Shown: positions 28,513 to 61,571, counted from the first letter of the stretch. The stretch: 64,000 nucleotides of DNA from Minisyncoccota bacterium (GCA_041659005.1 JBAZZD010000001.1:16366-80365); one strand, 5' to 3'. Translations and numbers: made by a program. Notes: a model not told the origin generated them from the letters alone.

Positions 28513-28572
28513 GACTCGAACCTACAACCATCGCGTTAACAGCGCGCCGCTCAACCATTGAGCTACCGGGGA
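28498..28572 (-). tRNA. tRNA-Asn (GTT)
   Basis: Hand-folded cloverleaf. Acceptor TCCCCGG/CCGGGGA. D-arm GCTC-AATGGTT-GAGC. Anticodon loop CTGTTAA. T-arm GTAGG-TTCGAGT-CCTAC. Encoded CCA. Confidence 0.8.
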
Positions 28573-28642
28573 ATATTGTTTCCTATAAGGAACATAAGCA
28601 ATTGTAACAAAAAAGCGCCCAATGTAAAGTTCATTGTGACGC

Positions 28643-29023
28643 TTAAAAAACTCTTATAATCTCTAAAATTTGACCCTTTACCGATTCCTTCATATCCTCC
28701 TCTTCTTCGGAAACTACAACTATCGGAATTAATGGATGACTCTTCCTATGCCCCTCAACTAGATGGAGCCCAGTAACCTGAATGGGAATGACAACTCTCT
28801 CTAATCGCATAACTACGATATAAAAATCAATTCCGTCTATAATGTCTGCATATCCAAATTTCGGAGTCTTTATAAACTCAAGTATTTGCTTTTCTTTTTT
28901 CATCTTTGCGAGAACATCGAAAACTAAACCCTCTCGCCTATCACCTCGTTCTGCTGATCCTGGAAGATCATTCATCGATCGTTTCAGTATTCGCTCACGG
29001 AGCGACTCAAAACTGGAATCCAT
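28643..29023 (-). CDS. Hypothetical protein
   Basis: 126-aa ORF between two tRNA loci. No family recognised. Confidence 0.4.
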   Translation of the reverse strand: MDSSFESLRERILKRSMNDLPGSAERGDRREGLVFDVLAKMKKEKQILEFIKTPKFGYADIIDGIDFYIVVMRLERVVIPIQVTGLHLVEGHRKSHPLIPIVVVSEEEEDMKESVKGQILEIIRVF

Positions 29024-29781: not shown

Positions 29782-29854
29782 GCCCCTATAGCTCAGTTGG
29801 TAGAGCAGTTGCCTCTTAAGCAAACGGTCCTAGGTTCAAATCCTAGTGGGGGCA
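29782..29854 (+). tRNA. tRNA-Lys (CTT)
   Basis: Cloverleaf. GCCCCTA acceptor. D-arm GCTC-AGTTGGTA-GAGC. Anticodon loop CTCTTAA. T-arm CTAGG-TTCAAAT-CCTAG. 3' acceptor TGGGGGC+A. CCA not encoded. Confidence 0.8.
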
Positions 29855-29860
29855 CAAATT

Positions 29861-46618: not shown

Positions 46619-46695
46619 CTACATTAAATTCAAAATATTGACAAGTTCCTCAGTTCGTTCTATTATAGAATTATCATTAATAAAAGGGAGGCAAA

Positions 46696-47112: not shown

Positions 47113-47142
47113 TCCCCCGCTTCCGCGGGGATTTTTATTTTA
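47113..47142 (+). terminator. Rho-independent terminator
   Basis: CCCCGCttccGCGGGG followed by ATTTTTATTTT. Confidence 0.55.
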
Positions 47143-47160: not shown

Positions 47161-47198
47161 TGATAACAGTTACCAACGGCCGTTGGTAACTGTTATCA
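47161..47198. repeat. Palindromic element copy A (perfect 38-bp palindrome)
   Basis: TGATAACAGTTACCAACGG|CCGTTGGTAACTGTTATCA. Confidence 0.9.
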
Positions 47199-47251
47199 GC
47201 CCTACTCTTAGGTAGACACTTCCGCTCAGAATCAATGAGATTGCTGTCTAA

Positions 47252-49357
47252 TTATTTTTTTCCGATTTTTATCCACCATTCGTGCGGAGATTGGCTTGTT
47301 TCGGTATATGAGCATGTTCCGCTACACGCTTCATTCTTCCCTGGACCAATTCCCCACCCTGCTCGCCCAATAGTTGGAGTATCCGTGTTCTTACTCGCAA
47401 TTTTCCACCCCATATCGGTTCCTCGATAAGCCCCAGGCACGTCAAGCCCAAACCAATATGGAACTTCTGGATCAAGTGTTATTGGATTTTCAAAACTAAG
47501 TATGACCTCGGTGCCCTGATCAATTGAAGTATAATTTCCGATCTGAGCTTTTCCGATAACCGTATCAAAATCAGGAAGTCCAGATGGAAACGACGGATAC
47601 ATAATCAGTCGTAATCCAGAGTCGTACACACTATGTTTCCACGTCTTTAGGCCAACCACATCAAATGTTGTTGTTGAATGCACCAATATATTTTGATATT
47701 CTGCCTCATCATTATCAGTATTATATGCGGGTGAATTTCCTGCGTGATATTTATAATCATCTGATTCAGTTTGGGATATGAGAACAGTTGGAGCTACTAG
47801 CCCAATACTTTCGCTAACGATTTCTGAATAATTTCCATCAGTATCTTTCGCGCGAATATGCGCATACGTCGGAAATTCCATTCCGGTAATAAATGATGTG
47901 GTTGTGTTTCCTCCAACATCTTTCCACACAAGAGAACTTGTGGCAGTTGACGAAGAAATCGCAACATCATTTACTAACCCCCCATCTCTTGAATCTAAAT
48001 CGATTGGATTATTCCATTGTAACGTTATAGAAGATTTATTTGTTGTATATTCTGATTGAATTGGTCCATTGGAAACAGGATTTTCCCCTTTATTTTCTTC
48101 TGAATTAAAATAGTATCGCGTTGCATCACGAGTTATTGGATTAAAATATCGTTCCGACGCCGTAAGATCCAATGAATAAAATGCAAATGTTACATAATCA
48201 CTTGGCAAAAACTGCATTTGTCCCTCTGGCAGAACTGGTTTTAAAATAATCACATTATCTTCGGTATAATTTATGCTGTAATTTCCTGATCCTGGCCCGT
48301 ATCCAAGACAATTTCCGGCTCCTCCTGGGAATACCACATCTTTTGTCTGCGACTCATATCCATGACATCCAGGAAATCTAAGCGTGAGCGTATCGGGTAA
48401 ATTTTCAAATTCTTTTGTTTGTCCAGTAAGCTCTGCGTCTTTATTAAAGTACACCACTAATTTTCGTTCATGATTCTGGTCATTAAAATCAGGTATGAAC
48501 GGATATTGTTCTGTGGTTAATTCAATAATTGGTTCACTATTTCGCGTTCCAAAATATACCTGACCCACATAACTTGGTACTGAAATAGAAATGTCTACAG
48601 GAGCGGAACACGCATAATCACGATCGCACGCCTTTAATTGAAATGAATAGTCTTTTCCAACATACAGAGGAACATATGAAAATGTGGTTGAAGCGGTATG
48701 TACAATTTGCGTTGTGCTTGTACCAGAAACCAGCGTGACATCATACCACGCACCATTTCCCTCACTATCCGTTGACGTGCTCCACGAAAAATTAATTACA
48801 TTGCTATTTTGAATATATTCAGCGTATGTCTCTTTTCCATTTTGTTTTTCAGGGGGCGGTGGGGCATCACGTGGCTCGATCATGCTTGCACCATTTTGTG
48901 GAGTTGGATTATCTCGTACTTCAAAATCCGAATGCATAAGTTCCGTGTCGCATGCATTTCCTTGAAATTCTCCCGAACCATTTGTGATTGCAGAGGCACA
49001 CATATTTCCATTCCACGCACGTCGCTCAAGTGACTTTCCATTTGATAAATCAAAGTCTTTGTAATTTACAAAATCAACAACATCAACATCATTTACTGAC
49101 TCAATTTTCTCGTCATTTTTTACCAAAAATACGAGTCCGCCAGTTTGCGCACTAGACATTGAAAATGTGCGATGGGAAAGATCGGGCGTGGTTGATGCAC
49201 TATATCCATCGTCTCCATTAACACTTAGTCCACGCGCGATAAGAAAATATACTTCTCCACGAATTGAGGAGGATGCAATAAAATTTTTCTTAGAAACCGT
49301 CTCGGGTGTTATTTCCTCTGCTAATCCAGACGCATATTGAATTGACCATCCAGTCAT
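47252..49357 (-). CDS. Large Ser/Thr/Asn-rich putative surface protein
   Basis: 701 aa. beta-rich low-complexity composition. Directly downstream (different frame) of the LTD/PKD protein. Confidence 0.5.
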   Translation of the reverse strand: MTGWSIQYASGLAEEITPETVSKKNFIASSSIRGEVYFLIARGLSVNGDDGYSASTTPDLSHRTFSMSSAQTGGLVFLVKNDEKIESVNDVDVVDFVNYKDFDLSNGKSLERRAWNGNMCASAITNGSGEFQGNACDTELMHSDFEVRDNPTPQNGASMIEPRDAPPPPEKQNGKETYAEYIQNSNVINFSWSTSTDSEGNGAWYDVTLVSGTSTTQIVHTASTTFSYVPLYVGKDYSFQLKACDRDYACSAPVDISISVPSYVGQVYFGTRNSEPIIELTTEQYPFIPDFNDQNHERKLVVYFNKDAELTGQTKEFENLPDTLTLRFPGCHGYESQTKDVVFPGGAGNCLGYGPGSGNYSINYTEDNVIILKPVLPEGQMQFLPSDYVTFAFYSLDLTASERYFNPITRDATRYYFNSEENKGENPVSNGPIQSEYTTNKSSITLQWNNPIDLDSRDGGLVNDVAISSSTATSSLVWKDVGGNTTTSFITGMEFPTYAHIRAKDTDGNYSEIVSESIGLVAPTVLISQTESDDYKYHAGNSPAYNTDNDEAEYQNILVHSTTTFDVVGLKTWKHSVYDSGLRLIMYPSFPSGLPDFDTVIGKAQIGNYTSIDQGTEVILSFENPITLDPEVPYWFGLDVPGAYRGTDMGWKIASKNTDTPTIGRAGWGIGPGKNEACSGTCSYTETSQSPHEWWIKIGKK

Positions 49358-49448
49358 ATCAATGGTGCTTGTGCTTGGATTGTATAGCTCAATAAATTCA
49401 TCCCCCGCATCTACTCCTCCATACTGAATTTCAGAAATTACTATGTGA

Positions 49449-51731
49449 TCAGCTTTCCTCCCCCCCGCTTGGTTCTATTGATACCGTAGTAGTCGCAAGT
49501 GTATATTCATCTTCATTGTCATACACGCTAACTTCAGCGATATAAGTTCCAACAGTAGAATAGGTATGCTCTGTTGTGTTTATCACCGACGTAAATTCTG
49601 TCTCATCGCCAAATTTCCATATATATTTTTCAATTATTCCATCGGGATCAGTTGAAGATGCAAACAGTGTTACCACATCGCGTTCCTTTGGTTCGCCTGG
49701 GGTAAATGAGAATTCAACAATTGGTTTTTGATTTGTATGTGGCGGAGTATATTTATTTTCTTCTCCTGGTGTTGGCGTTGACGGATACCAAGAATTCGCA
49801 ATCTTCTGTAATGAATTTCCATCGCCATTCGCACCATACGAACTAAAATATTCTGCCTCTCCTAAATTGCGAACATTTCCAAACATCGCAAGTGTATCGC
49901 GAGTATTTGAAAGGGCCATGGCGCTTTTCCACAACGAACCAACATAATTGGGGAAATTTTCTAAAAATTTCTCTGGCGAATTCGCAATAACTCCATATTC
50001 ATGTGACACAAGAACATCATTCCCACGCCATAACGAGAGGGCATGCTTTTGTCCTGATTCTACAAACCGAAGATTCTTTATTGTCACCGTTGAAGTTCCC
50101 GAGTTATATATTTCTACCCATTCACTCCCCGTATCACTTCCCACCGCATTATACATAATCTCCGTGATATCAATTTTTACGTTTGGATATTCGTCAGTCA
50201 CAACATATGCGCCACCAGAACCGCCGCTTGATGCCGCTCGCGTAGTTGTATTACCTGCTGTCTGCGTTGACGTCGCGACGGTCGTAGTGGTGATGGTCGT
50301 CGTTGTAATTGTTGTGGTTGTGATTATCTGCTGAGCTGCCTCAGTTGTTGTCGCAATAAATTCAGATCGAATTGGTCTTTCAAAAACTACTTCTTGTTGT
50401 GGTTGTATTTCTAATTGTGTCTGCATCTCCTGTTGTTCTTCTGGTTGCTCTACCAACTCCACATTATTTTCTTTATTTACCAATTCTTCGTTTGTGTTAT
50501 CTATTATTATTTCTGGAATAATTGTTTCACTATCAGAAACAACCAAATTAGATGACGCATCATTTTTTGTCTTTTGTTGAGGATCTCCACTTATGAGCGA
50601 AATGATTGCGTCAGAAACGGTTCCAAATAATTCCGCAACCGCATTAAATGCGCGCCCCGCCTCACCAATAAATGAAAATGCTGGCGTACGAAATGCATGC
50701 CGATCAATTCCTAAAATATGTGGTGCGAACTCATTCGCAATTTTCTGATCCTCCCCCTGCTTCAAAAATAATTCAATTACTCCCGCGCCGCCCTGAACTG
50801 CTTTTGATGCAAGCCGAGAAAAATATGAACCGAGAATAATTTTACTTTCAGAAAAAATTAATTCCTTTTTTAGTGAAACGGTATCGCTATTTTTTCTTTT
50901 AACCTCGGCTATTTTGAATTTTTCTCCCTTTTCATTAATCACATATGCATAATTTCCATCAGTATTAACAACTTTCGGATTTTCATATTTTGGATCGTTA
51001 ATCGTATCTTTTGAAAAGAAATATTTATTTGAGTATTCCGCCATTGCACCTAACGAATCCTGAATTGTCGCGAACGAAACTACTGGCTTTCCTTCTTTTA
51101 TAAGCACCTCGGGAATATGTAAATTTTTAATTGAACTACTATTCCACACAACAGCGTACGCCTCATAGGGAGAGCCCTCGTCTCCCGTCACTTCCTTGAG
51201 TGGCGCATGTGAATCATTCCGCGTATGATCGGGCATCGCCATATCTTCGAACAAGTGAAGCGCATGTCCCAATGCTTTCATTGCTGCTTCTCTGTCGTTT
51301 TTTGCATATGCTTGAAGTCCAGTTCTCCACGAATTGTCTCCTCCATATCGCACATAATCATACTGCGCCAGGTCGTTCACCGCCCATTCAGGTACCGAAA
51401 GTGGCTCTCGCGAGATAATCCCCACACGAGCAAATGCTTGTGTTGCAAGTGCTGGAGTATCCCCTTGGTGTTCCCCTGTCCATCCCTCATTTCTCACAGG
51501 ATCATAAAAATGATTCACCCATCGAGGTGTAATGTCCTCATTTTTACTTCCTTCAATAATCAGTTTCTGATCACTTTCAGAAATTTTTGTGTCAGGATGC
51601 GTGAGATTATAAAATCTCAAAATTTCCTGAGTGAGTGCAGGATGAGTAGTGTCGTCGTCATACGCAAATACAGAAGGTACTGAGCACAGAAATATTCCCA
51701 AGAAAACAAACAAAGTTTTCCTAAAATTCAT
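49449..51731 (-). CDS. Secreted large protein with lamin-tail-domain (LTD)-like and PKD-like regions and a Thr-rich linker
   Basis: Signal peptide MNFRKTLFVFLGIFLCSVPSVFA. TTTITTTTITTTTV linker. LTD-like ITEIMYNAVGSDTGSEWVEIYNSG. C-terminal PKD-like DPDGIIEKYIWKFGD. Confidence 0.6.
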   Translation of the reverse strand: MNFRKTLFVFLGIFLCSVPSVFAYDDDTTHPALTQEILRFYNLTHPDTKISESDQKLIIEGSKNEDITPRWVNHFYDPVRNEGWTGEHQGDTPALATQAFARVGIISREPLSVPEWAVNDLAQYDYVRYGGDNSWRTGLQAYAKNDREAAMKALGHALHLFEDMAMPDHTRNDSHAPLKEVTGDEGSPYEAYAVVWNSSSIKNLHIPEVLIKEGKPVVSFATIQDSLGAMAEYSNKYFFSKDTINDPKYENPKVVNTDGNYAYVINEKGEKFKIAEVKRKNSDTVSLKKELIFSESKIILGSYFSRLASKAVQGGAGVIELFLKQGEDQKIANEFAPHILGIDRHAFRTPAFSFIGEAGRAFNAVAELFGTVSDAIISLISGDPQQKTKNDASSNLVVSDSETIIPEIIIDNTNEELVNKENNVELVEQPEEQQEMQTQLEIQPQQEVVFERPIRSEFIATTTEAAQQIITTTTITTTTITTTTVATSTQTAGNTTTRAASSGGSGGAYVVTDEYPNVKIDITEIMYNAVGSDTGSEWVEIYNSGTSTVTIKNLRFVESGQKHALSLWRGNDVLVSHEYGVIANSPEKFLENFPNYVGSLWKSAMALSNTRDTLAMFGNVRNLGEAEYFSSYGANGDGNSLQKIANSWYPSTPTPGEENKYTPPHTNQKPIVEFSFTPGEPKERDVVTLFASSTDPDGIIEKYIWKFGDETEFTSVINTTEHTYSTVGTYIAEVSVYDNEDEYTLATTTVSIEPSGGEES

Positions 51732-51746
51732 TGTTGTGTAATTAAA

Positions 51747-52265
51747 TTAGATTTCTATAATTTTCCAAATTCCGTTCGGATACAGTTTCAAATTTAAAAG
51801 TATATCTCCATTGAAACCAAATCGCTGATTCTCTTGAGAATAAATTCCATCATTATTCAAAATCTTTTTGATTTCCGAAATATATATATTTACTTCTTGT
51901 TTCTCTGATTTTTTTAGTTTTTCTAGCTCTTTCTGTTGTCTTGTCCCAATAAAATACTTACTCGCAAGTTCATAGTCCCCTTTTTCAACTGCAGAAATAT
52001 AGAGAGAAAGTGTCTCCTGTGGAGTCTTCCCACCATAAGTATCTTTCATCGCCTCTTCATAATCCGCTTTTTGAATATCAAGAATCACTTGGTTTAGCTG
52101 ATCCACTGCCCGCATGTTCTGCCATCTATCATATTCAGCGAGTAAAAAGATCACAGCAACAACTGTAATGATAATCAGTATAAAAATCACAAATTTCCGC
52201 ACTGCTTTTGTAGATTGTGAAGGTTGTGGGAGGGGTTGAAGTATTTTTTGTATTTCTGGATTCAT
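51747..52265 (-). CDS. Membrane-anchored hypothetical protein
   Basis: 172 aa, single N-terminal TM. Confidence 0.4.
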   Translation of the reverse strand: MNPEIQKILQPLPQPSQSTKAVRKFVIFILIIITVVAVIFLLAEYDRWQNMRAVDQLNQVILDIQKADYEEAMKDTYGGKTPQETLSLYISAVEKGDYELASKYFIGTRQQKELEKLKKSEKQEVNIYISEIKKILNNDGIYSQENQRFGFNGDILLNLKLYPNGIWKIIEI

Positions 52266-52271
52266 AAAAAG

Positions 52272-52517
52272 TTATTTGTTAGTTTGTTCCTCGCTTGCCA
52301 TCGGAAGAAACTGAGTTGTGCGCGTATCATTTAATACATTATCAATTTTTGCCTGTTGATTTTGCTCATACACAGAAATTGAATAAAGCCCCGTTATCGC
52401 AAACGAAACGATTCCCAAAAATCCAATAACAAAATACCAATACGCGGATCTGCGATGATGGTTAAGATCAAGTGTATTCACACTTGGAAGTTGTGGAGGA
52501 ATAATAAAAGTTTCCAT
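52272..52517 (-). CDS. Small membrane protein
   Basis: 81 aa, one TM. Confidence 0.35.
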   Translation of the reverse strand: METFIIPPQLPSVNTLDLNHHRRSAYWYFVIGFLGIVSFAITGLYSISVYEQNQQAKIDNVLNDTRTTQFLPMASEEQTNK

Positions 52518-52610
52518 AAAAAACGAACACGATTTACATGTTCGTTGTTCTTTCTTATTTTTATTGTATCAAAAAAAATATTTCATTTTTTATTATTCCT
52601 GTGGATAACT

Positions 52611-52726
52611 TAGGACTCGCAAAGATTGTAAACTTTTTTGAGCCCGCTCCATATATCGACAAGCCGACTTGTCGATATATAGGCCGCTTGGCCAAGTCCT
52701 AGTCTCAAAAAAATTTACAATCTTTT
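52611..52726. repeat. Complex nested inverted-repeat region with perfect 13-bp-arm palindrome core (52651-52680)
   Basis: ATATATCGACAAGccgaCTTGTCGATATAT at the centre. Flanking modules TAGGACT and AAAGATTGTAAAyTTTTTTGAG present in both orientations. Confidence 0.6.
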
Positions 52727-52949
52727 CTCGTTGGGGAAAATGGAGACTTGGGGATTTAGTCTCCTTACGCAGAAATATTTGCTCATTTTAAAAAAAGAAA
52801 AAATCTTAGTCTCCAAAAATCTATAACCCTCTCTCGTTTGTAAGGTAAAGATTTTATAATTCAATCTCCTCATCAAATCTGTTGAAGTCCGACTTCAACA
52901 GATTGTCTCAATAGATCGGAAAGTAATAAAAAGACCCCATAGCGAGGTC

Positions 52950-53426
52950 TTACTCTTTATTAGCACCGAGAGATATGAGTTCCGAGAATAAATCCATTGA
53001 TGTTCGTCCTTCAACTTTAGAGACAAGAGATGAATCAACTTCGCGCTCGTTCCAAGTAAGCGACGTTGGTCCTCCCATAACGTCCATAACAGTGGAAATT
53101 CCACGCTCCTCATCAGTTCTTAGGAGAACACCAATCGCATAGACATTAGGAGCAATTGGCCACCGCACTACTTGTCTCCCCTTCAATGCATCGGGAAACA
53201 TTTCCTGAATAAACGCTTTTTTTATTATATGTTTCTTAATTTTCTTCAATAATTCCTTTAGAAAGCCGGTCGCCATAATAATTGGAATCACGAGAAGAAT
53301 CTTAAAAATAAAATTGTCCGTAATAATTCCCAATGGACCCGAAATAATATTCCAAAAAAGATAGATGAGTGCCACCATTATCCATGGAACTAACCCACCT
53401 CGAAAATATCTAATTAAAATTTTCAT
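52950..53426 (-). CDS. Multi-TM membrane protein, hypothetical
   Basis: 158 aa, about 3 TM helices. Confidence 0.4.
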   Translation of the reverse strand: MKILIRYFRGGLVPWIMVALIYLFWNIISGPLGIITDNFIFKILLVIPIIMATGFLKELLKKIKKHIIKKAFIQEMFPDALKGRQVVRWPIAPNVYAIGVLLRTDEERGISTVMDVMGGPTSLTWNEREVDSSLVSKVEGRTSMDLFSELISLGANKE

Positions 53427-53515
53427 CGTTCTACACTCCTTTCAATTTTTAAAATGCTGTGCATACTATGCATTTTATTTGATAAATATGCAAATTAGGG
53501 TAGTATGAAAGCGTT

Positions 53516-54841
53516 ATGGGAATTCACAAAAAATCCCTTCTCCTCATTGGGGATATCATCGTGCTCTATATAGCACTTGCGGGTACACTCCTCGTTCGAT
53601 ATCGCAATATCGGCCTATTTAAAGAGAACTGGAGCCTACACATCGCCCCATTCTCCATAATCTTCATCCTGTGGATCATTGTGTTTTACTGGACCGATCT
53701 CTACCGCTATAAAGCGTTCAGGAGCCGCGAATGGCTACTAAAGGCACTATCAGGCGGGATTATACTCTCAGCAGGACTTTCAATAATTTTCTTCTATCTA
53801 TTTCCTACCGTTTTTGGAGTCATGCCAAAAACAAACCTCCTTATTTTTAGTGCTGTTTCTTTTTTTCTTTTGTATTTTTGGCGAATGCGCATTCGAACGT
53901 TATTCGTAAAAAATGCAGCAAACACTATTGTGCTCGGTAATACCCCACTCCTTTCTTCCACTGTTCAATTTTTAAAAGAAAACCCACAAATCGGATTTAA
54001 CGTTACCGAATGGATTCAGGTAGTAACAAAAGAAGCACTTGAATCTCTCCCAACAAAAATAACACAAACTGATTCGCATCTTATTGTTGTACAAAAAAAC
54101 GCATTAACCGATCCAAAAACACTTTCAGCACTCTATAAACTTCTTCCACTTGAAACATCCGTAATGACTTTTTCAAATTTTTACGAAGCGGTTTTTGAAA
54201 AGGAACCAATAGAAGAACTCAACGAAAGCTGGTTCATTGAACACATCACCGTTCGCAGACCACTCTACGATATGGTAAAACGCACAACTGACATTGTTGC
54301 CGCAATTATGATGATTATTATTTTCATTCTCCCATCCATATTTATCGCATTATTTATAAAACTCTCATCGAGTGGGAAAATTATTTATTCACAAATACGC
54401 ATAGGAAAAAATAATATTCCATTCACACTCTACAAATTTAGGAGTATGCGGGCAGATGCCGAAAAAGATGGCGCACAATGGTCAAAAGAAAATGACAATC
54501 GCACTACAAAAATTGGAAAATTTTTACGATACACACATCTTGATGAACTTCCACAAACATGGAATATACTCCGCGGAGATATCTCGCTTGTTGGCCCTCG
54601 TCCTGAACGCCCAGAATTTACTAAAACACTTGAAAAAGAAATTCCGTTTTACAACATTCGCCACATCATCCGCCCAGGATTCACCGGACACGCACAGGTA
54701 AATTATCGTTATGGCGCATCGGTAGAAGATTCAAAAGAAAAGCTCGCATACGACATTTATTACATAAAACATCGCTCAACTATTACCGACAATTTCATTG
54801 TCCTCAAAACAGTGAAAATGATATTCGTAAAACTTATTTAA
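53516..54841 (+). CDS. Polyprenyl-phosphate sugar phosphotransferase (WbaP/EpsL-like bacterial sugar transferase)
   Basis: N-terminal TM region. C-terminal domain YKFRSMRADAE..LDELPQ..NILRGDISLVGPRPERPEF (PF02397-type). Confidence 0.8.
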   Translation: MGIHKKSLLLIGDIIVLYIALAGTLLVRYRNIGLFKENWSLHIAPFSIIFILWIIVFYWTDLYRYKAFRSREWLLKALSGGIILSAGLSIIFFYLFPTVFGVMPKTNLLIFSAVSFFLLYFWRMRIRTLFVKNAANTIVLGNTPLLSSTVQFLKENPQIGFNVTEWIQVVTKEALESLPTKITQTDSHLIVVQKNALTDPKTLSALYKLLPLETSVMTFSNFYEAVFEKEPIEELNESWFIEHITVRRPLYDMVKRTTDIVAAIMMIIIFILPSIFIALFIKLSSSGKIIYSQIRIGKNNIPFTLYKFRSMRADAEKDGAQWSKENDNRTTKIGKFLRYTHLDELPQTWNILRGDISLVGPRPERPEFTKTLEKEIPFYNIRHIIRPGFTGHAQVNYRYGASVEDSKEKLAYDIYYIKHRSTITDNFIVLKTVKMIFVKLI

Positions 54842-54872
54842 AAATATTTCAATAAAGTCTTATATCCCAAAA

Positions 54873-54910
54873 TGATAACAGTTACCAACGACCGTCGGTA
54901 ACTGTTATCA
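54873..54910. repeat. Palindromic element copy B
   Basis: TGATAACAGTTACCAACGACCGTCGGTAACTGTTATCA (one mismatch in the stem). Confidence 0.9.
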
Positions 54911-54924
54911 TTTAGCATTAATGT

Positions 54925-55518
54925 TTATTTAGTTACTGTCCCTCGTTTTGTTACCTCAAATACATGAACGTAATTAAATATTCCTAAGTCATAAAGATCC
55001 TCGATGAAATTTTTGGGGATTTTTTTATTTCCAATCCATACACTTTGCTGTAAAAGCGAAAACCCCATTTCCTTTAACGTCTCGCGGATCCAACTCCGTT
55101 TTTCTTTTATCTTCTCTGGTATATCAAATGCAACAATAGTATAATTTTTCTGATTCTCACATAAATATTCCCTTGGTTTTTTCTTTCGTATTTCCTTTAT
55201 TGAGTCCCTTCCATCCCCCGACAGTTTCCACTTCTTGCTTTTTCGTTCTACGAGTCCCTGTTTTTCAAGGCTAAGAAGTACGTTATAAAACGAAATTTTT
55301 GTATTCCTCGGTATTTTTATCTCTTTTTTATTTTTTATAGGAACTCCAAAATAAGCATGGGCATAACGATTATGCATATCAGTCGGATTGAGGAAAATAT
55401 TTGCGAAAATTTCAGCAGTAGAAAATGCACCCTCCTTCAAAACTTCTAAGACGAGGTGTGACTTCGTTCCCCATCTTTTTTTCTTTTTTATTGAAATTAA
55501 TTTTTTATCCATAATCAT
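54925..55518 (-). CDS. Winged-helix DNA-binding protein with C-terminal Cas2/VapD-like ferredoxin-fold domain (PaaX-like architecture)
   Basis: wHTH-like LVLEVLKEGAFSTAEIFANIF..LSLEKQGLVERK. C-terminal TIVAFDIPEKIKEKRSWIRETLKEMGFSLLQQSVWIG resembles the Cas2 beta1-alpha1-beta2 core (YDV..R..v...L...G.RvQ.SVf). Confidence 0.45.
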   Translation of the reverse strand: MIMDKKLISIKKKKRWGTKSHLVLEVLKEGAFSTAEIFANIFLNPTDMHNRYAHAYFGVPIKNKKEIKIPRNTKISFYNVLLSLEKQGLVERKSKKWKLSGDGRDSIKEIRKKKPREYLCENQKNYTIVAFDIPEKIKEKRSWIRETLKEMGFSLLQQSVWIGNKKIPKNFIEDLYDLGIFNYVHVFEVTKRGTVTK

Positions 55519-55550
55519 TTTCTTTGTTTTCTTTATTTCAGTATACCACA

Positions 55551-55592
55551 GGTGATAACAGTTACCGACGACCGTCGGTAACTGTTATCACC
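55551..55592. repeat. Palindromic element copy C (perfect 20-bp arms, AC centre)
   Basis: GGTGATAACAGTTACCGACGacCGTCGGTAACTGTTATCACC. Confidence 0.9.
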
Positions 55593-55695
55593 CCCTGTTG
55601 TGTATATATTAATTAATTTTTTATGAAGAATAAACAAGAATCAGATAAAGCAAGGGTGGAATTTTAGAGAAAAATAGGTACAATGGGATATATCT

Positions 55696-57156
55696 ATGAT
55701 ACCGAAGATTAAGTCATTCCTTTTTGAAAACAAGACAGAGGCACAAACAATTGCAAAAAACACCTTTTGGCTTACATTCGGAATGATCGTGAGCCGTTCT
55801 ATTCGAGCAATAATGATCATGTACGCCGCTCGAGTCCTTGGAACTGAAGGATACGGTGTTTTTTCATACGCACTCAGTTTTGCCGGACTTTTTGGTGTAT
55901 TTTCTGATATGGGGCTCTCTGGAATTCTCACAAGACAAGCCGTCCAAGAACCAGAAAAAATAAAAACATATATTTCGACCACGTTTTTTCTTAAACTTAT
56001 TGCACTTGTTGTTACTATATTTATCACTATCTTCATTGGACCTTACCTTACCAATGTTAAGGGGATTCAAGAACTTCTCATCGTGGTAAGTGCGCTTCTT
56101 GCATTTGACTCGCTTCGTGGATTTGCGTTTTCTATCGCACGAGCAAAAAATAAAATGCAAATTGAGTCTGGCGCAAATGTCCTCACCGATGGACTCATTA
56201 CCCTCTTAGGAATTCTCGCGTTATTTTTATATCCATCAGCAAAATTTCTTGCATATGGATACACAATGGGTGTAGTTCTGGGGACCACAATAACATTTTT
56301 TATTCTTCATAAAGATTTTTCAGGAATCTTCAATCATTTCAATAAAGAAACTGCAAAACTTGTACTTCGTAGTTCATGGCCATTTGCGCTTATGGGGCTT
56401 TTTGGCGGACTGATGATTAACATAGACGTACTTGTCATTGGATGGTTTCGAACTGCGCATGATTTAGGACTGTACGGAGCCGCGCAACGACCAATTGTGT
56501 TTTTATATGTGCTTCCTTCATTATTTGCCGCAAGCATTTTCCCAATTATAAGTCGCTACGTAAAGGAAAAAAAAACTGATTTGATAAAACGAATGATAGA
56601 AAAATCCATTTCCATTTCAATGATGTTTGCATTTCCTCTTCTTGTTGGAGGCGTTATCGTTGGGGTTCCGCTTACAGTATTTATCTTTGGGGGCGCATTC
56701 ATTGATGCATCATCACCATTTCAAATATTACTTCTCACCGTACCGTTAGTATTTGCCGGTTCAATTATGGGAAATGTATTGTTTGCGCACAACAAACAAA
56801 AAACATTTATTGTTGGATACGGACTTGGCGCACTTGCAAATATTGTGCTTGATCTTATTCTTATACCTCCTTATGGCGTAACCGGTTCAGCATTCGCAAC
56901 TCTTGTTTCTCAAATTTTCTCCAATGGATGGCTTTGGCTTAATATGCAAAAAACAATTCCGTTTTCTTTGTTTCCGCATATAAAAAAAATCATAATCGCA
57001 TCTATTGGAATGGGAATTGTGTGTTTTCTCGTTTCCACACTTTCTCCTCATGTGCTTTTCACTATAGGAACGGGGGGCGCCGTATATCTTGGATTGCTTA
57101 TCTTACAAAAAGAGCCACTTTTACAAAAACTCAACCCAAAAATGTTAGTGGAGTAG
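55696..57156 (+). CDS. Wzx-type polysaccharide/oligosaccharide flippase (MOP superfamily)
   Basis: 486 aa, about 12-14 TM helices. N-terminus typical of PST family (TFWLTFGMIVSRSIRAIMIMYAARVLG). Confidence 0.75.
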   Translation: MIPKIKSFLFENKTEAQTIAKNTFWLTFGMIVSRSIRAIMIMYAARVLGTEGYGVFSYALSFAGLFGVFSDMGLSGILTRQAVQEPEKIKTYISTTFFLKLIALVVTIFITIFIGPYLTNVKGIQELLIVVSALLAFDSLRGFAFSIARAKNKMQIESGANVLTDGLITLLGILALFLYPSAKFLAYGYTMGVVLGTTITFFILHKDFSGIFNHFNKETAKLVLRSSWPFALMGLFGGLMINIDVLVIGWFRTAHDLGLYGAAQRPIVFLYVLPSLFAASIFPIISRYVKEKKTDLIKRMIEKSISISMMFAFPLLVGGVIVGVPLTVFIFGGAFIDASSPFQILLLTVPLVFAGSIMGNVLFAHNKQKTFIVGYGLGALANIVLDLILIPPYGVTGSAFATLVSQIFSNGWLWLNMQKTIPFSLFPHIKKIIIASIGMGIVCFLVSTLSPHVLFTIGTGGAVYLGLLILQKEPLLQKLNPKMLVE

Positions 57157-57163
57157 TAATCAT

Positions 57164-57203
57164 ATGATAATCAATAAAAACGACCGTTTTTATTGATTAT
57201 CAT
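57164..57203. repeat. Palindromic element copy D (perfect 19-bp arms, AC centre, same ends and centre as A-C but different middle)
   Basis: ATGATAATCAATAAAAACGacCGTTTTTATTGATTATCAT. Confidence 0.9.
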
Positions 57204-57274
57204 AGTTCCTTTCAAATATGAAAGGGAATTGTTGACATATGAAAATCCATTTTGCTTTTTACCTATTTAAACAT

Positions 57275-58021
57275 TTAAATCAAAAACTGTGTTAGTTTTG
57301 AAAGTATTCTTCGAGCAATAAAGAACGAAGGAATTTTTAGATTATTAACCAGCCAAGCCCTTTTTAATTCTTTCCAACCAATCCTTCTCTGCCCAATATC
57401 GCGTCCGGAAGCGCCACCATTATACATTCGGACCAAAACGCGCGGGAAATATTTTATGTTTACCCTATAAATTTTTAAAATCCTTAAAATAAATTCATAG
57501 TCGCCTGCTATCTTAAAATTAGAGTTAAACAAACCGCATTTTTCATAAACCGTTCGGTGCAAAAATAAAGCGGGATGCGGGATAATCCAACCATTATTTA
57601 ATTTATTTTCCCGATACTCCCCCGCCCGCCATATTCTTGTCATCTTATTAACATCAGTAGAAAAATATCCCACGTCACCGTAAACTGCCTCAATCTTTTC
57701 ATCCCTAAAAGCTTCAATGACATTTGCTAAAACTTTATCGTTATCAAATAAGTCATCAGAATTTAAAATCCCGATAATTTTCCCGCTGGCCATTTTAATT
57801 CCCCTATTCATCGCATCGTAGATACCGTTATCTTTTTCACTTACCCAATAAAAGATTTTATCGTTATATTTTTTTATAATATCAACAGTTCCGTCGGTTG
57901 ATCCACCATCAATAACAATATGTTCTACATCAACATTCTTCTGAGAAAGAACGCCCTGAATCGTAGCCTCTATGGTTAGAACACTGTTATAACAAGGAGT
58001 TACAATAGAAATTTTCATCAT
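57275..58021 (-). CDS. Family 2 glycosyltransferase
   Basis: ISIVTPCYNS, HIVIDGGSTDGT, DDL motifs. Confidence 0.8.
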   Translation of the reverse strand: MMKISIVTPCYNSVLTIEATIQGVLSQKNVDVEHIVIDGGSTDGTVDIIKKYNDKIFYWVSEKDNGIYDAMNRGIKMASGKIIGILNSDDLFDNDKVLANVIEAFRDEKIEAVYGDVGYFSTDVNKMTRIWRAGEYRENKLNNGWIIPHPALFLHRTVYEKCGLFNSNFKIAGDYEFILRILKIYRVNIKYFPRVLVRMYNGGASGRDIGQRRIGWKELKRAWLVNNLKIPSFFIARRILSKLTQFLI

Positions 58022-59169
58022 TGATATACTTGTTCTATGCGCCTTGCAATGATGCGGGGATCGAATTCTTTACTAACAAGATCTTTTCCTGCAATAATAT
58101 AATTATTGCGAATTTTGTCGTTAGTATAGGTTTGTAAAAGCGCCTCAGCAATTACTTTCTCATTTAAAGAAACAACACTCCCCGCTCCATATTGTGAAAC
58201 AACATCACTGATACCAACATATTCTGAGATAACAATTGGTACCCCAACTGCAAGTGCCTCAGCGGGAGCCATTCCAAAATTCTCTGAATAAGAAGTAAGC
58301 GCAAACACGCGAGCTTCGCGCAAAAGCATTAAACGATCATTTCCCGATACAAGCCCAGTAAAAATTACCCTGTTTGAGATATTAAGATCGCGAATAATAT
58401 TCTGTAATGAATGTAATGTGTTTTCATCTGGACCAGCAATTACTAACTGCGCGTCTTCCATCTCTTCCTTCTCACACAAAAGAGAGAACGCATGAACTAA
58501 ATAGTCAATTCCTTTTTTCCAATTAAGGCGTCCAAAATACAAAATATATTTTCCCCGCATGATTCCAAAATGTTTAAAAATTTGTTCATCCAAGAAAAAA
58601 TTGTTTAACTCGCCTACATCCAATGCGTTGGGAATAACACACGATGGAAGAGAAAGTTTTGTAAAAGAGAGAAACTCTTTTTTTTCAAAGTTTGAAGTAA
58701 AATGGATTAATTTTGCGTGCTTATAGATATTTTTTAGGATTATCTGATATAATAACATTTTTTTAAAAAAGCTCTTTTTTTTCACAAGTGCGACATCCAT
58801 AGAACCGCGAGGAGAAAAAACAAATGGGCGCTCATGACACACAAAAAATTTTCCTGAAATCCAACACATCGGATCCCAAGTAAGATGGATATGAAATATA
58901 TCGAATGACTTATGAGTTTTTCTTAAAGCAGAAATAAAAGAAAATGAAAATCTCCATGTCCGCACCCCCCAAGAAGAAAAATAGTGGACTACTACCCCAT
59001 CAATAATTTTCTCACGCGAAATATTTTCAGAAAGTCCGAACGTTGTCGTATACACAGAAACTGAATGCCCCAATTTAACAAGTTCGGAAGCAAGTAAATG
59101 TACCGAACGAATGGGACCACCCCATCTAACCGACGGATAGTATGCTGGAATAATAAAGCAGATTTTCAT
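58018..59169 (-). CDS. Family 4 (GT-B) glycosyltransferase
   Basis: C-terminal SENFGMAPAEALAVGVPIV (EX7E). Confidence 0.75.
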   Translation of the reverse strand: MKICFIIPAYYPSVRWGGPIRSVHLLASELVKLGHSVSVYTTTFGLSENISREKIIDGVVVHYFSSWGVRTWRFSFSFISALRKTHKSFDIFHIHLTWDPMCWISGKFFVCHERPFVFSPRGSMDVALVKKKSFFKKMLLYQIILKNIYKHAKLIHFTSNFEKKEFLSFTKLSLPSCVIPNALDVGELNNFFLDEQIFKHFGIMRGKYILYFGRLNWKKGIDYLVHAFSLLCEKEEMEDAQLVIAGPDENTLHSLQNIIRDLNISNRVIFTGLVSGNDRLMLLREARVFALTSYSENFGMAPAEALAVGVPIVISEYVGISDVVSQYGAGSVVSLNEKVIAEALLQTYTNDKIRNNYIIAGKDLVSKEFDPRIIARRIEQVYQ

Positions 59170-59184
59170 AAAAACAAATTGAAA

Positions 59185-59856
59185 TCATTTTAAAAAACTA
59201 TAGAAAAATCTTAAAATAGATCTAACAAAATTTTCTAGTTTTTCCTTAAAGATAAGCTTTTTTAAATAACAACTCTTAAAATCACTATCTTGAATAGAAC
59301 TAATTCTCTTGCCAACAATCATACTAAACAGAGAAATATCCTTTAAATCATTTTCTATAAAAGAGTTTTCCTTTCTCATCTTAACGAAAACTCCAGAAGC
59401 CTCAGGATCATCTTTTAAAGAAAATATTTTAAAATCAGAAAATATCTTTTGCATGTCTTCTTTTTCATACCGCCAAAAATCATAAGGATAAGCATGAAAA
59501 TGAAAACCGCGAGATCGAGTTGTTATTATAATTGTTCCTTCCGGTTTACAAATTTTTTTTATATTTGATATAACGGTTTTCCAATCCCTTACATGTTCCA
59601 TTAATTCCGTTGAAATAACGACATCAAAGCTTTCTTTGCCAAACTTATCCACAAGGGAAGAGGCATCACACACGAAATCAACTCCAGGACCATCTTTTAT
59701 ATCAACCCCAATATATTTCTTTGGATTCAACAGGCCAACAATCGATCTGACGCTTCCATTTACGTCATATGAACCAACTTCTATAACATCTTTGCCCTCT
59801 ATTTCGTTTCTTTCTATATTCTCCGCAACATATAATATACAACTTACATGACACAT
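59185..59856 (-). CDS. Class I SAM-dependent methyltransferase
   Basis: Motif I-like VIEVGSYDVNG, FDVVISTELMEHV, KPEGTIIIT. Confidence 0.55.
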   Translation of the reverse strand: MCHVSCILYVAENIERNEIEGKDVIEVGSYDVNGSVRSIVGLLNPKKYIGVDIKDGPGVDFVCDASSLVDKFGKESFDVVISTELMEHVRDWKTVISNIKKICKPEGTIIITTRSRGFHFHAYPYDFWRYEKEDMQKIFSDFKIFSLKDDPEASGVFVKMRKENSFIENDLKDISLFSMIVGKRISSIQDSDFKSCYLKKLIFKEKLENFVRSILRFFYSFLK

Positions 59857-59877
59857 AAAATAAATTTTAAAATATAA

Positions 59878-60849
59878 TTAATATCCTACGACTGTTATGT
59901 ATTTATTTTCGAAATACTCTTTTTTATTTTTGTAATATTCCCAATCAATTCCGTTTTTCTGAAATACAATTTGTGGAATATTTCCATAATACGAAGCAAA
60001 TGCGCCAAACGTACTATTAGAGCCTATTATACAGTCCACCATAGAAAGTTCAAGTAGGTCTCCAATGCTTTTTTCGTTGCGCTCTAAAAAAACATTGAGC
60101 CCAGAAAATATATCTAAATTAACATCACCGTCAGAAAAGACTAGAAAAACAACATTAGAAACATTCAATGAAAAAAAATCTATGTATTTCCGCAATATGA
60201 TCATAATTTCTTCATCAGAGAAATAAAATAATCCATTGGCAAAATAAAGATAATCTCCTTTTCGAATATGTACCCCAACGACAGTCGCATATGATTCCCT
60301 GTATTTCTTAATGCGCTCTCGAGCAGTAATGATGTATTGTTCTTTTGGCAAAAAATACTCCTTTATCTCACTTCTATATTTCAAGATGCCAACAGGATTA
60401 CGAAATAGCCAACCACTAAAATACAGAAAACTTTTTGTTTTTTCTCTATCAAATTCTAATATCTCTTGAGAGGTGCATTGCGAAGGAGGTAAATAAACAG
60501 GAATATTATGTTCGCAATCATGAGTCGCTCGCAGTATATGATCTGGATTTATTAGTTTTATAATGACAACACAAAATTGGTACAATTTTCTCATTACACA
60601 CCTATACCCACGAGCACAAATGGAATTATCGTTTTTAAAGTGAAAATAAATGAATTCTAAAAAATCAAAAAGAAAATTTCCAGAAGAAAAATGAAAATAC
60701 TTTCCATATTCAAAAAATGAATAATTATTACATTTATATTTTTTTTCTAAGCAATATGCGTATACACTCACGAAAAGCCACAATTGGTTCGCAAGCTGCC
60801 CCCCATTGTGTTCTAAAATAATTATCTTCTTCATTTTTTGGTAAAACAA
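59878..60849 (-). CDS. GT11-like (alpha-1,2-fucosyltransferase family) glycosyltransferase
   Basis: GVHIRKGDY matches the GT11 HxRRGDY motif. Confidence 0.5.
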   Translation of the reverse strand: MFYQKMKKIIILEHNGGQLANQLWLFVSVYAYCLEKKYKCNNYSFFEYGKYFHFSSGNFLFDFLEFIYFHFKNDNSICARGYRCVMRKLYQFCVVIIKLINPDHILRATHDCEHNIPVYLPPSQCTSQEILEFDREKTKSFLYFSGWLFRNPVGILKYRSEIKEYFLPKEQYIITARERIKKYRESYATVVGVHIRKGDYLYFANGLFYFSDEEIMIILRKYIDFFSLNVSNVVFLVFSDGDVNLDIFSGLNVFLERNEKSIGDLLELSMVDCIIGSNSTFGAFASYYGNIPQIVFQKNGIDWEYYKNKKEYFENKYITVVGY

Positions 60850-61568
60850 AACATACCGGTCCCAAACCCTCTCGCAGCGTCGTATGCATTAAATATTTCC
60901 TTTCCGTATAAGTACTTTTCTTCGATACACGAAAGTCCAGAAAAAATCTTAAAAACATAATCCCTCGTAAATGCTCTATGTGCATTACAATACGATATAT
61001 TCTCACGATCAACAGGAACAGAAATATATAAAAATCCCCCAGGGGCAAGCACGCGACAAAGCTCCTTTGCTGCTTTTTCTGATCCAAATGCATCTATTGA
61101 ATCTCCATAACGACCCAAACCAATATGCTCAATAACACAAATAGAACTTAGGGACGCAATGCTTCCATCATCAAAAGAAAGAGAGCAAATATTCCCCTTC
61201 ATGAACGACAATCCTTGAAGAGGAAGTTCAACCGGGCGTATATCTATCATCGTTGTCGGAACATACTGAGAAATAATACTCACCAAACCTATATGAGATC
61301 CAACGTCACAATGACGAGTGGGTTTGTGTTTAAAAATCATGGAAGCGCACCATGCATTTTGATAGAAATAAATAGGATCAATGGGGGTTATTTTCGTCTT
61401 ATCAGAAAAAATTGGATACAAATATAAAATTGATGCTCTGAATTCCTTATTTTTCTTTTGAGAATAGAAACTCAAAAAAAACATTGGAGCTTCATAAAAA
61501 AATCTAAAAACATTAAAACGAATGCCCCTCAAACAAGAAAATAATCGATATAATAATTTTAAAAACAT
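60831..61568 (-). CDS. Methyltransferase-like protein (DUF268-like)
   Basis: CDVGSHIGLVS (motif I-like), LAPGGFLYISVP. Confidence 0.4.
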   Translation of the reverse strand: MFLKLLYRLFSCLRGIRFNVFRFFYEAPMFFLSFYSQKKNKEFRASILYLYPIFSDKTKITPIDPIYFYQNAWCASMIFKHKPTRHCDVGSHIGLVSIISQYVPTTMIDIRPVELPLQGLSFMKGNICSLSFDDGSIASLSSICVIEHIGLGRYGDSIDAFGSEKAAKELCRVLAPGGFLYISVPVDRENISYCNAHRAFTRDYVFKIFSGLSCIEEKYLYGKEIFNAYDAARGFGTGMFCFTKK

Positions 61569-61571
61569 AAA

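Follow-up and report, generated by a model that had tools for sequence, protein, structure and literature searches.

We identified four 38-bp palindromes in a 64-kb window, the whole stretch of DNA that was analysed, from a Candidatus Paceibacterota (CPR) genome, and the comparative evidence below suggests that they are probably DNA-binding sites of a 197-aa protein, mini-PaaX, that is encoded between the second and the third of them. A gene flanked by two such palindromes recurs across CPR bacteria, and the arrangement appears to be undescribed: literature searches on PaaX/Cas2, on Cas2-like domains with winged helices and on palindromes in Patescibacteria brought up no description of the module. 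The features discussed here are the following, in window coordinates:

47161..47198, no strand: palindrome A, a solo copy whose centre, ACGGCCGT, is fully symmetric
54873..54910, no strand: palindrome B, the downstream copy of the cassette; paired region to 54870-54913, one A.C mismatch
54925..55518, minus strand: mini-PaaX gene, 197 aa, winged helix plus Cas2-like domain by profile and fold matches
55540..55548, minus strand: candidate extended -10 of the mini-PaaX promoter, TGgTATACT, predicted by reading the sequence
55553..55590, no strand: palindrome C, the upstream copy and putative operator; paired region to 55551-55592
57165..57202, no strand: palindrome D, a solo copy with a different yet self-complementary middle; paired region to 57163-57204

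The four palindromes share the core TGATAA-N9-ACGRCCGT-N9-TTATCA, with starts at 47161, 54873, 55553 and 57165. All copies reported in a preliminary description of this DNA were found, its longer coordinates for C and D taking in extra paired flanking bases. The pattern had no match in 100 dinucleotide-preserving shuffles of the window, and when hairpins were ranked across the whole 64 kb, copies A-D occupied the top four places. Folding as single-stranded DNA gave energies between -15.6 and -21.2 kcal/mol (z-scores from -8.5 to -9.5). Pairing is perfect in A, perfect save for the central AC dinucleotide in C and D, and broken by the single mismatch in B; the asymmetric AC centre is oriented alike in B, C and D. 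The arms GATAACAGTTACC are common to A, B and C. Copy D has TGATAA, TA at arm positions 11-12 and the centre ACGACCGT in common with them, and is changed at 6 of the 9 middle positions relative to A-C, with each change mirrored in the opposite arm. In every copy the outer hexamers TGATAA/TTATCA are separated by N26, and the elements are bare 38-bp palindromes without any internal segment. Non-palindromic TGATAA-N26-TTATCA sites were not found above chance in the window: allowing up to two mismatches gave 12 matches compared to 8.6 expected, and the 8 that fall outside the four palindromes, including one in a promoter region (46639-46676), look like chance matches. Rfam at gathering thresholds returned two tRNAs only in the whole window and nothing at the palindromes. 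Since the palindromes recur in the independently assembled metagenome contigs L075 and L101, the latter with a copy identical to A, they are not an assembly artefact; the metagenome scan added one further variant only, in L097 from the same sample.

A pattern search of the window placed all four copies within one 10-kb stretch (47161-57202), with 7,712, 680 and 1,612 bp between successive copies and whole genes inside these intervals. As had been described, A, B and D are at convergent gene ends and C separates the starts of two divergent genes, the 197-aa gene and wzx. Palindrome A lies 53 bp past the stop of a 701-aa fn3 surface-protein gene on the minus strand and 66 bp past a 132-aa ORF on the plus strand that has its own terminator at 47115-47140. 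Comparison of this ORF with mini-PaaX by hhalign gave a probability of 0.2% and no match, so it is not a decayed mini-PaaX and copy A is no obvious scar of a lost cassette. Palindrome B is 14 bp past the mini-PaaX stop and 31 bp past the Bac_transf stop, and palindrome D is 8 bp past the wzx stop and 72 bp past that of a GT2 gene, both at convergent junctions. Copy D also marks the point where the conserved part of the glycan locus gives way to a glycosyltransferase region that varies between genomes.

The mini-PaaX protein, a truncated PaaX, has an N-terminal MarR/PadR-like winged helix at about residues 19-112, with a profile match spanning residues 11-124, and a C-terminal Cas2-like ferredoxin-fold domain at about residues 120-189 with the motif FDIPE...R.W.R...QQSVW. 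PF20803 PaaX_M matched residues 126-193 (E 2e-13), and the AF2 model (pLDDT 80) had E. coli PaaX (8a39) as its top PDB match, followed by PadR/MarR regulators and Cas2. The Cas2 model TIGR01573 scored up to 29 bits (cutoff 24.5) over the N-terminal half of the model only, and the PaaX equivalog TIGR02277 gave 16.2 bits, far below its cutoff of 264.55. A search of the 197-aa protein for the PaaX_C domain gave no match, the protein ending at residue 197; neither a recombinase nor a transposase domain was found in it, and PADLOC returned partial Cas2 and winged-helix matches only and no defence system. The most conserved residues are in the Cas2-like domain and include the Cas2-type Asp of FDIPE. 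The genes around mini-PaaX encode Bac_transf, the Wzx flippase, glycosyltransferases and surface proteins. The family comprises 826 clusters at 50% identity (E<=1e-30); within the genome collection scanned with the profile, all members detected belonged to CPR bacteria, and a protein scan of viral contigs found no relatives. Genomes carry several paralogues in unrelated contexts, including the neighbourhoods of rplJ and hrcA.

This domain order, a winged helix and then a Cas2-like dimerisation domain, is that of PaaX, known from phenylacetate catabolism in E. coli and Pseudomonas. The E. coli PaaX box, quoted in a review as TGATTC-N27-GAATCA (PMC9493321), spans 39 bp compared to 38 bp here, and in both cases 6-bp inverted half-sites begin with TGAT, geometry alone being compared. 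Furthermore, PaaX represses its own promoter by steric hindrance, occluding RNA polymerase (PMC9493321), and copy C abuts the predicted -10 box of its regulator. However, mini-PaaX is without the C-terminal phenylacetyl-CoA-binding domain, has no paa genes nearby and scores far below the equivalog cutoff; its site, in which the CGRYCG centre is invariant, is self-complementary over nearly the full length, a second copy stands immediately downstream of the gene, and the family was restricted to CPR in the collection scanned. With Cas2, of the Cas2/VapD fold, mini-PaaX shares the beta1-alpha1 signature (a hydrophobic strand, then D-I), a structural alignment with Cas2 chains and an association with palindromic repeats of CRISPR-repeat-like length, whereas its Cas2-like domain is fused to a winged helix and matches only the N-terminal half of the Cas2 model. 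The palindromes are not a CRISPR array: there is no repeat-spacer structure, no cas genes are evident beside the cassette, and successive copies are separated by 680-7,700 bp that contain whole genes, instead of by short spacers of ~25-50 bp.

The family data cover 65 loci (890 kb) from diverse CPR lineages, found with a 7-sequence alignment of mini-PaaX homologues, with 63 further loci beyond the window containing homologues. Because sites selected as palindromes would have made the covariation count circular, the test was anchored on CGRYCG, and a hexamer was scored as a palindrome centre if at least 11 of 15 pairs formed around it. Among hexamers adjoining mini-PaaX gene ends 91 of 111 (82%) were palindrome centres, compared to 19 of 825 (2.3%) elsewhere in the 65 loci. 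Strictly defined palindromes lay within 260 bp of the mini-PaaX gene in 66 of 77 cases, and a looser census of 64 genes counted 44 upstream, 49 downstream and 16 solo copies. A typical locus has one 30-52-bp palindrome upstream and another downstream of the gene, and the length can vary even within one locus (34 vs 52 bp in L051). The arms vary between genomes and the CGRYCG centre is the sole family-wide invariant; in a short subfamily the conserved block is the compact central TGTCCGGCCGGACA. The position of the palindromes is conserved in the orthologous glycan loci L002, L006, L004 and L074, and the position and orientation of the cassette are kept in orthologous loci down to 51% protein identity. 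Paralogues in one genome have different palindromes (L050/L054 vs L051; also L058, L061, L064 and L065), which would count as cognate specificity in favour of an operator function. In L074, the orthologous regulator (54% identical) has a D-type sequence as its flanking palindrome, and a protein of this clade would thus use sites whose resemblance to A-C is confined to the ends, the TA step and the centre. Comparison across loci does not fit REP/BIME or MITE-like repeats, which were among the candidates first proposed: the palindromes resemble REP/BIME, as they resemble bidirectional intrinsic terminators and attC, in being intergenic and in some cases lying between convergent genes, but they have low copy numbers (the 64 kb contain four, none more than 10 kb from the regulator), they are tied to one gene, and their arms are lineage-specific. 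The comparison favours another of those candidates, operators of a dedicated regulator, with the adjacent 197-aa winged-helix protein as the putative regulator.

Of 42 upstream copies, 36 had a -10-like hexamer on the gene side, which carried a TGn extension (TGnTATAAT-type) in 16, compared to 17-20 of 42-48 (35-48%) and 2-5 with TGn on three control sides, and no promoter excess was seen at downstream and solo copies. In the window, the divergent promoter region contains palindrome C, with 34 bp separating it from the start codon of mini-PaaX and 105 bp from that of wzx, and the candidate TGgTATACT is 7 nt downstream of the palindrome, a layout found alike in L002, L004 and L074. A predicted -10 box abutting the upstream copy indicates an autoregulatory operator.

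If the palindromes were RNA hairpins at transcription-unit boundaries, serving independently of any protein as bidirectional terminators, as insulators or to stabilise mRNA 3' ends, this would fit the convergent positions of A, B and D, their long, stable stems, and the L009 and L023 copies that are likewise at transcription-unit ends; in a permissive scan for hairpins with T-rich tails, A on the minus strand and D on the plus strand, and only these, passed. However, T-tracts after downstream copies were not enriched compared to the three control sides, and none were in excess at solo copies. There was also no preference for G.U-type mismatches on the sense strand (13 sense vs 11 antisense in upstream copies, 11 vs 11 in downstream copies), and about half of all mismatches were of the transversion type. 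The lack of promoter or T-tract excess and of a G.U strand bias means that downstream and solo copies are not canonical terminators, whereas canonical GC-stem/T-tract terminators, such as that at 47115-47140, do exist in the same genome. Furthermore, C and 44 other upstream copies are on predicted promoters, upstream of the -10 box and hence outside the gene's transcript, and RNA hairpins would not explain why the copies are strictly linked to one gene family or why their arms are lineage-specific. We consider it quite unlikely that termination, as suggested in the preliminary description, or a related RNA function is what these elements are for. Recombination sites of the lox/dif/attC type, with inverted arms and a 6-bp core, that bound exchangeable or excisable modules are an explanation to which we give very little credence. 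Solo copies would then be scars or empty sites, and the cassette would be selfish or addiction-like, with its DNA-binding domain fused to a Cas2/VapD-like domain. The palindromes do have the architecture of recombinase core sites, two copies bracket the gene, the AC centre has one orientation in B, C and D, and D borders conserved genes on one side and unrelated glycosyltransferase genes on the other (between the window and L074, Bac_transf is 85% and Wzx 70% identical, and the 248-aa ORFs beyond wzx have no significant similarity). The regulator, at 54% identity, also evolves faster than these neighbours, and its paralogues are scattered over unrelated contexts. Against this stand the conserved position and orientation of the cassette, the protein's want of a recombinase or transposase domain, the lack of relatives in viral contigs, and the loci themselves, among which no near-identical multicopy cassettes were seen. 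Simple cut-and-paste, with excision at palindrome centres and reinsertion into solo sites, needs identical copies and is incompatible with L050, whose upstream copy departs from the downstream one at 5 compensated positions, with arms that are still self-complementary. Integron attC sites share conserved ends and a variable yet paired middle, but the stems here are perfect or have a single mismatch, lack extrahelical bases, bulges and GTTRRRY boxes, and end in TGATAA/TTATCA.

The compensatory covariation first noted in copy D was correct and generalises: paired upstream and downstream copies showed 16 compensated and 17 one-sided differences, and no change of both arms without pairing. Outer arms are wholly different between proteins that are 76-84% identical, yet they are perfectly self-complementary. 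As far as sequence can tell, the mirrored middle shows that the arms would pair with each other at some stage in vivo. Such symmetric covariation could come from selection for a hairpin or from quasipalindrome correction. The latter, in the Ripley model, is a mutational process of intramolecular template switching; it explains mirrored arm changes and varying palindrome length without selection on sequence, but it provides no function and leaves the existence of the sites and their gene linkage unexplained. The pattern from which selection had been deduced is real, but selection for the hairpin is not forced, because template switching within the palindrome gives the same pattern; a dimeric-protein site, the other alternative offered, leaves symmetry at apparently unread positions unexplained if a simple dimer-operator model is taken alone. 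It is unlikely that the functional form itself is a hairpin, whether single-stranded or extruded from the DNA, or an extruded cruciform. A structure-specific protein would then read the stem together with the C(GRYC)G loop at its apex, perhaps via the Cas2-like domain, and possibly nick this structure, the stem being free to change as long as it is paired. Freely varying but paired arms fit this, as do a sole invariant that corresponds to the would-be loop with its closing pairs, a central dinucleotide that may be non-complementary (AC/GT) as expected of a loop, the conserved residues of the Cas2-like domain, and folds with z about -9. However, the G+C-rich centre disfavours spontaneous cruciform extrusion, and a degenerate R/Y at the dyad is equally given by a symmetric dimer on double-stranded CGR half-sites. 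Moreover, outer TGATAA and the TA step are kept across A-C, D and L074 despite their different middles, which argues for sequence reading along the duplex, and the 30-52 bp length range fits mutational extension better than a fixed structural need. We know of no nuclease activity in the homologous PaaX domain, which counts against nicking. A broader version, in which the winged-helix/Cas2-like gene and its two palindromes form an autonomous module, is also improbable; a Cas2-like dimer would recognise, and perhaps cut, the CGRYCG apex of extruded hairpins, making the cassette a selfish or addiction-type element or a means of dividing gene clusters into units that are insulated or exchangeable. 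If true, a Cas2-domain protein with its own cognate palindromic repeats may bear on how Cas2-family proteins met palindromic repeats.

Returning to the operator reading, we infer binding, its stoichiometry, repression and the roles of B, D and A as follows. A mini-PaaX dimer, joined via the Cas2-like domain as in PaaX and Cas2, would cover ~38-40 bp whose conserved elements are the outer hexamers with 26 bp between them, a TA step at a distance of ~8-9 bp from the dyad, and CGRYCG at the centre. Copy C would occupy the -35/spacer region of mini-PaaX's own predicted TGnTATACT promoter, beside the divergent wzx promoter, and its occupancy would repress both, giving autoregulation and control of the flippase gene. 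B, D and A, at 3' ends of glycan and surface-protein transcription units, would be secondary sites of the same protein, either auxiliary operators looping to C or, at convergent junctions, insulators or roadblocks formed by the protein. What keeps the middle symmetric would be either selection for extrusion as a hairpin or cruciform or quasipalindrome correction by template switching. In lambda (OL/OR), phage 186 (FL/FR) and lac (O1-O3), a repressor gene or promoter is known to be flanked by identical operators at separations of a few hundred bp to a few kb, and the sites flanking mini-PaaX may be analogous, although each is a single 38-bp palindrome and the downstream one abuts the stop codon. 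Several observations count against operators: three of the four copies are off promoters, and a classical repressor-operator role explains only C; the invariant across the family is the central CGRYCG and not the distal half-sites, so the wide-spaced PaaX-like geometry may not hold family-wide; outer arms that are free to change, even within L050, and stay self-complementary are unpredicted by a plain dimer-operator model; and the sequence match of mini-PaaX to true PaaX is weak.

To our knowledge, very few regulators can be recognised in CPR bacteria (Patescibacteria), whose transcriptional control is almost entirely unexplored. Here a large, uncharacterised CPR protein family is linked to a clearly defined cis-element, and the cognate site of each protein would be predictable directly from the flanks of its own gene. 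Self-bracketing perfect palindromes with symmetric arm drift offer a natural system for separating hairpin selection from template-switch repair, and the mini-PaaX module one for asking what a Cas2-like domain does outside CRISPR. The system is tied to cell-surface glycan clusters in the window and in at least one distant lineage, that of L023, which also has four copies of the palindrome in a glycosyltransferase cluster.

The four palindromes (copies A to D) reported in the preliminary description are present in the window and share the 38-bp core TGATAA-N9-ACGRCCGT-N9-TTATCA. This pattern occurred 0 times in 100 dinucleotide-preserving shuffles, and A to D rank as the top four short-loop inverted repeats across the 64 kb of the window. 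Folded as single-stranded DNA, they reach -15.6 to -21.2 kcal/mol (z -8.5 to -9.5). Their setting, drawn from the ORF listing and Pfam, is as follows.

Palindromes A to D and the genes around them
132-aa ORF, + strand, with its own terminator at 47115-47140; precedes A
47161-47198, palindrome A, 38-bp core
701-aa fn3 protein, - strand, after A, then more surface-protein genes
Bac_transf, 441 aa, + strand; precedes B
54873-54910, palindrome B, 38-bp core
54925-55518, - strand, 197-aa protein (mini-PaaX), between B and C
55553-55590, palindrome C, 38-bp core
Wzx flippase, 486 aa, + strand, between C and D
57165-57202, palindrome D, 38-bp core
GT2 glycosyltransferase, - strand, beyond D; last gene in the - strand ORF run 57275-63880, which is taken to be an operon

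Thus, gene order and strands place A, B and D where genes converge and C where they diverge, in agreement with what had been claimed, and within the window the palindromes mark the borders of successive transcription units in the glycan/surface-protein cluster. The best-supported reading, in which we have moderate confidence, is that they are putative binding sites of the adjacent mini-PaaX.

The 197-aa protein has an identical counterpart, annotated as hypothetical, in a Candidatus Paceibacterota MAG. Its N-terminal domain is a MarR/PadR-like winged helix, and its C-terminal domain matches Pfam PaaX_M ("PaaX central Cas2-like domain") at 2e-13; Cas2 models match the latter weakly but reproducibly, with TIGR01573 reaching up to 29 bits in family members (cutoff 24.5). 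The AlphaFold model (pLDDT 80) comprises a winged helix and a beta-alpha-beta-beta-alpha-beta domain, and among solved structures it matches E. coli PaaX (8a39) best, with PadR/MarR regulators and Cas2 next. The C-terminal effector domain of PaaX is absent, hence the name mini-PaaX. Family members, nearly all 180-205 aa long, form 826 clusters (50% identity) at E<=1e-30 and 3,028 at E<=1e-10. When one genome per species was scanned, 63 homologous loci came up, all from CPR/Patescibacteria.

A palindrome scan of these 63 loci revealed palindromes beside the gene also in Saccharibacteria, Wolfebacteria, Portnoybacteria, Kerfeldbacteria and others. Typically, a 30-52-bp near-perfect palindrome is followed by a 10-100 bp spacer, the mini-PaaX gene and the same palindrome again, the downstream copy beginning anywhere from 27 nt ahead of the stop codon's end to 60 nt beyond it. 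By strict criteria, 66 of 77 palindromes lie <=260 bp from a mini-PaaX gene; a looser census of 64 genes counted 44 copies upstream, 49 downstream and 16 solo, and arms were most often 20 nt long. The link was confirmed by a test anchored on CGRYCG hexamers and hence involving no selection for palindromy: 91 of 111 such hexamers near gene ends were palindrome centres (>=11 of 15 pairs), compared to 19 of 825 elsewhere in the same loci. Furthermore, paralogues in one genome bear different palindromes (related loci L050/L054 versus L051; L058, L061, L064, L065), and specificity therefore tracks the adjacent gene, not a common host factor. The cassette of gene and both palindromes also occurs in unrelated contexts, for example beside hrcA, a DNA alkylation-repair gene or an ORF whose translation looks L10-like by eye. 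Intergenic gaps always set it apart from its neighbours, whose orientation has no fixed pattern. A REP/MITE nature of the palindromes was not supported, and there is little support for recombination sites or a selfish cassette. In several lineages a ~205-aa membrane-anchored protein with the motif GGKTPEETL...GDI..ASKYF and no Pfam match is conserved 3' of the cassette (L020 11116-11748; L036 3626-4255; L039 10503-11123; L043 11144-11755).

In orthologous glycan loci the mini-PaaX gene keeps its position, divergent from wzx and convergent with Bac_transf, and long palindromes again flank it, their sequences changed symmetrically.

Regulators and palindromes of orthologous glycan loci
L002: regulator 58% identical to that of the window; upstream palindrome TGTTAACACTTACCGGCGACCGCCGGTAAGTGTTAACA, downstream a 46-bp version
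L004: regulator 51% identical; upstream palindrome CTGTACCCCTATAACGACGGCCGTCGTTATAGGGGTACAG
L074: regulator 54% identical; on both sides the D-type sequence TGATAATCAATAAAAACGGCCG...

Between the window and L074, identity is 54% for the regulator (54925-55518 versus L074 2194-2808), 85% for Bac_transf and 70% for Wzx; the regulator and its palindromes diverge much faster than the neighbouring genes. The 248-aa ORFs past wzx showed no significant similarity between the two, so the region beyond copy D appears to differ.

On the strand of the gene, TGgTATACT comes 7 nt after copy C and the start codon another 21 nt on, and TGnTATAAT stands at the equivalent position in L002, L004, L074, L026 and L014. 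Family-wide, 36 of 42 upstream copies had a -10-like hexamer 9-50 nt from the dyad on the side facing the gene, in 16 cases with TGn, compared to 17-20 of 42-48 (TGn in 2-5) on three control sides. This enrichment places the upstream copy in the -35/spacer region of the regulator's predicted promoter, which is a classic position for autorepression. PaaX, too, represses its own Px promoter (PMC9493321). Downstream copies across the family showed neither promoter enrichment compared to the control sides nor enrichment of T-tracts, and a permissive terminator scan was passed only by A (- strand) and D (+ strand). Thus, these copies are not canonical terminators, and the bidirectional terminators initially suggested are not supported. 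Of the three candidates of the preliminary description, operators, terminators and REP/MITE elements, it is operators of the adjacent regulator that gene linkage and promoter overlap favour. Copy C could serve as an autoregulatory operator, also facing the wzx promoter, and B, D and A might be secondary sites at transcription-unit ends, perhaps with a looping or roadblock role.

The centre C-G-R|Y-C-G (CGATCG, CGGCCG, CGACCG/CGGTCG) is the sole family-wide invariant; A is preferred at position 4, positions 8-11 are A/T-rich, and a subfamily with shorter proteins has the extended core TGTCCGG|CCGGACA. Copies A-C, D and those of L097 and L074 have in common the outer hexamer (TGATAA or TGTTAA), a TA step and the centre, which L002 and L006 share with one or two changes; in the window's clade the positions between these elements vary freely. 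D differs from A-C at 6 of 9 middle positions per arm, each change mirrored on the opposite arm, while TGATAA, the TA step (arm positions 11-12) and the centre are retained. Between upstream and downstream copies at 19 loci, 309 pair positions were unchanged, 16 were compensated on both arms, 17 were changed on one arm only and in none had both arms changed without pairing; independent arms would yield <1 compensated change, and since the sites were picked as palindromes these counts carry some ascertainment bias. The proteins of L050, L052, L053 and L054 are 76-84% identical, and their palindromes have the inner 12 nt of the arm in common; their outer arms bear no relation to each other, although every palindrome is perfectly self-complementary, and the two L050 copies differ at five outer positions, 5/5 mirrored. 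In one cassette of L051 the copies are 34 bp and 52 bp long (4318-4351, 5006-5057) with the same inner sequence, and symmetry therefore grew outward in one copy. The compensatory covariation seen at the outset is thus real and general, and it reaches positions that the protein evidently does not read at the sequence level.

Two explanations of this symmetry remain: selection for an extruded DNA hairpin or cruciform, and intra-palindrome template switching (quasipalindrome correction), which also needs arm pairing in vivo. There was no signature of RNA pairing: G.U-type mismatches were as common on one strand as on the other, and mismatches of transversion type made up half of the total. The hairpin potential of the palindromes is a real property.

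The E. coli PaaX site, quoted as TGATTC-N27-GAATCA (PMC9493321), has about the same span, 39 bp compared to 38 bp here (TGATAA-N26-TTATCA), and half-site type and protein architecture are alike except for the effector domain; this likeness is a geometric resemblance, not demonstrated binding. The palindrome/mini-PaaX module, of which no description was found in the searchable literature, is widespread in CPR bacteria and fits best as a variant on the theme of PaaX-type repressor and operator.

The palindrome copies are not randomly scattered, and beyond these four the window has no sites in excess of chance. Searching for TGATAA-N10-CGRYCG-N10-TTATCA across metagenomes recovered the same organism's copies on the fragmentary contigs L075 (B, C and D) and L101 (A), as well as L074 and ~24 non-palindromic chance matches. 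An additional compensated variant, TGATAATAGTTATCAACGACCGTTGATAACTATTATCA, lies at L097 592-629 in the same metagenome, 30 bp past the gene of a 151-aa membrane protein, with a GGQ-motif release-factor-like gene nearby; it belongs either to the window's genome, as an extra solo copy elsewhere, or to a close relative. Palindrome-separated units also occur in L009, with a copy on either side of a divergent operon encoding a 1,536-aa protein among others, and in L023, with four copies among GT4 glycosyltransferases, a methyltransferase and a GDP-mannose dehydratase. One family palindrome of L023 (8392-8433) is not intergenic but lies inside a GT4 glycosyltransferase frame (ORF 7710-8912, Glycos_transf_1 domain).

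In the window, 46639-46676 matches TGATAA-N26-TTATCA with one mismatch (TGACAA...TTATCA) around a non-palindromic middle, overlapping a strong promoter-like sequence (TTGACA-17-TATTAT) that precedes the 132-aa ORF; the match is probably due to chance, because hits total 12 compared to 8.6 expected. A further conserved but unrelated palindrome, AATCTGTTGAAGTC-C-GACTTCAACAGATT, occupies 52876-52904, where it separates the 158-aa gene from the 81-aa gene in the surface-protein operon. It recurs at the same location in genomes with a regulator of only 58% identity (L002 12775-12809; L006 12659-12699, with a second copy at 18038-18076) and could be an operator, attenuator or processing site. The same intergenic stretch holds another 30-bp palindrome, ATATATCGACAAGCCGACTTGTCGATATAT, at 52651-52680. 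Finally, G+C rises to 0.44-0.48 at 20000-29000, compared to 0.30-0.39 elsewhere; this region, which may be a foreign island, ends by tRNA-Asn (28498-28572, - strand) and tRNA-Lys (29782-29855, + strand).
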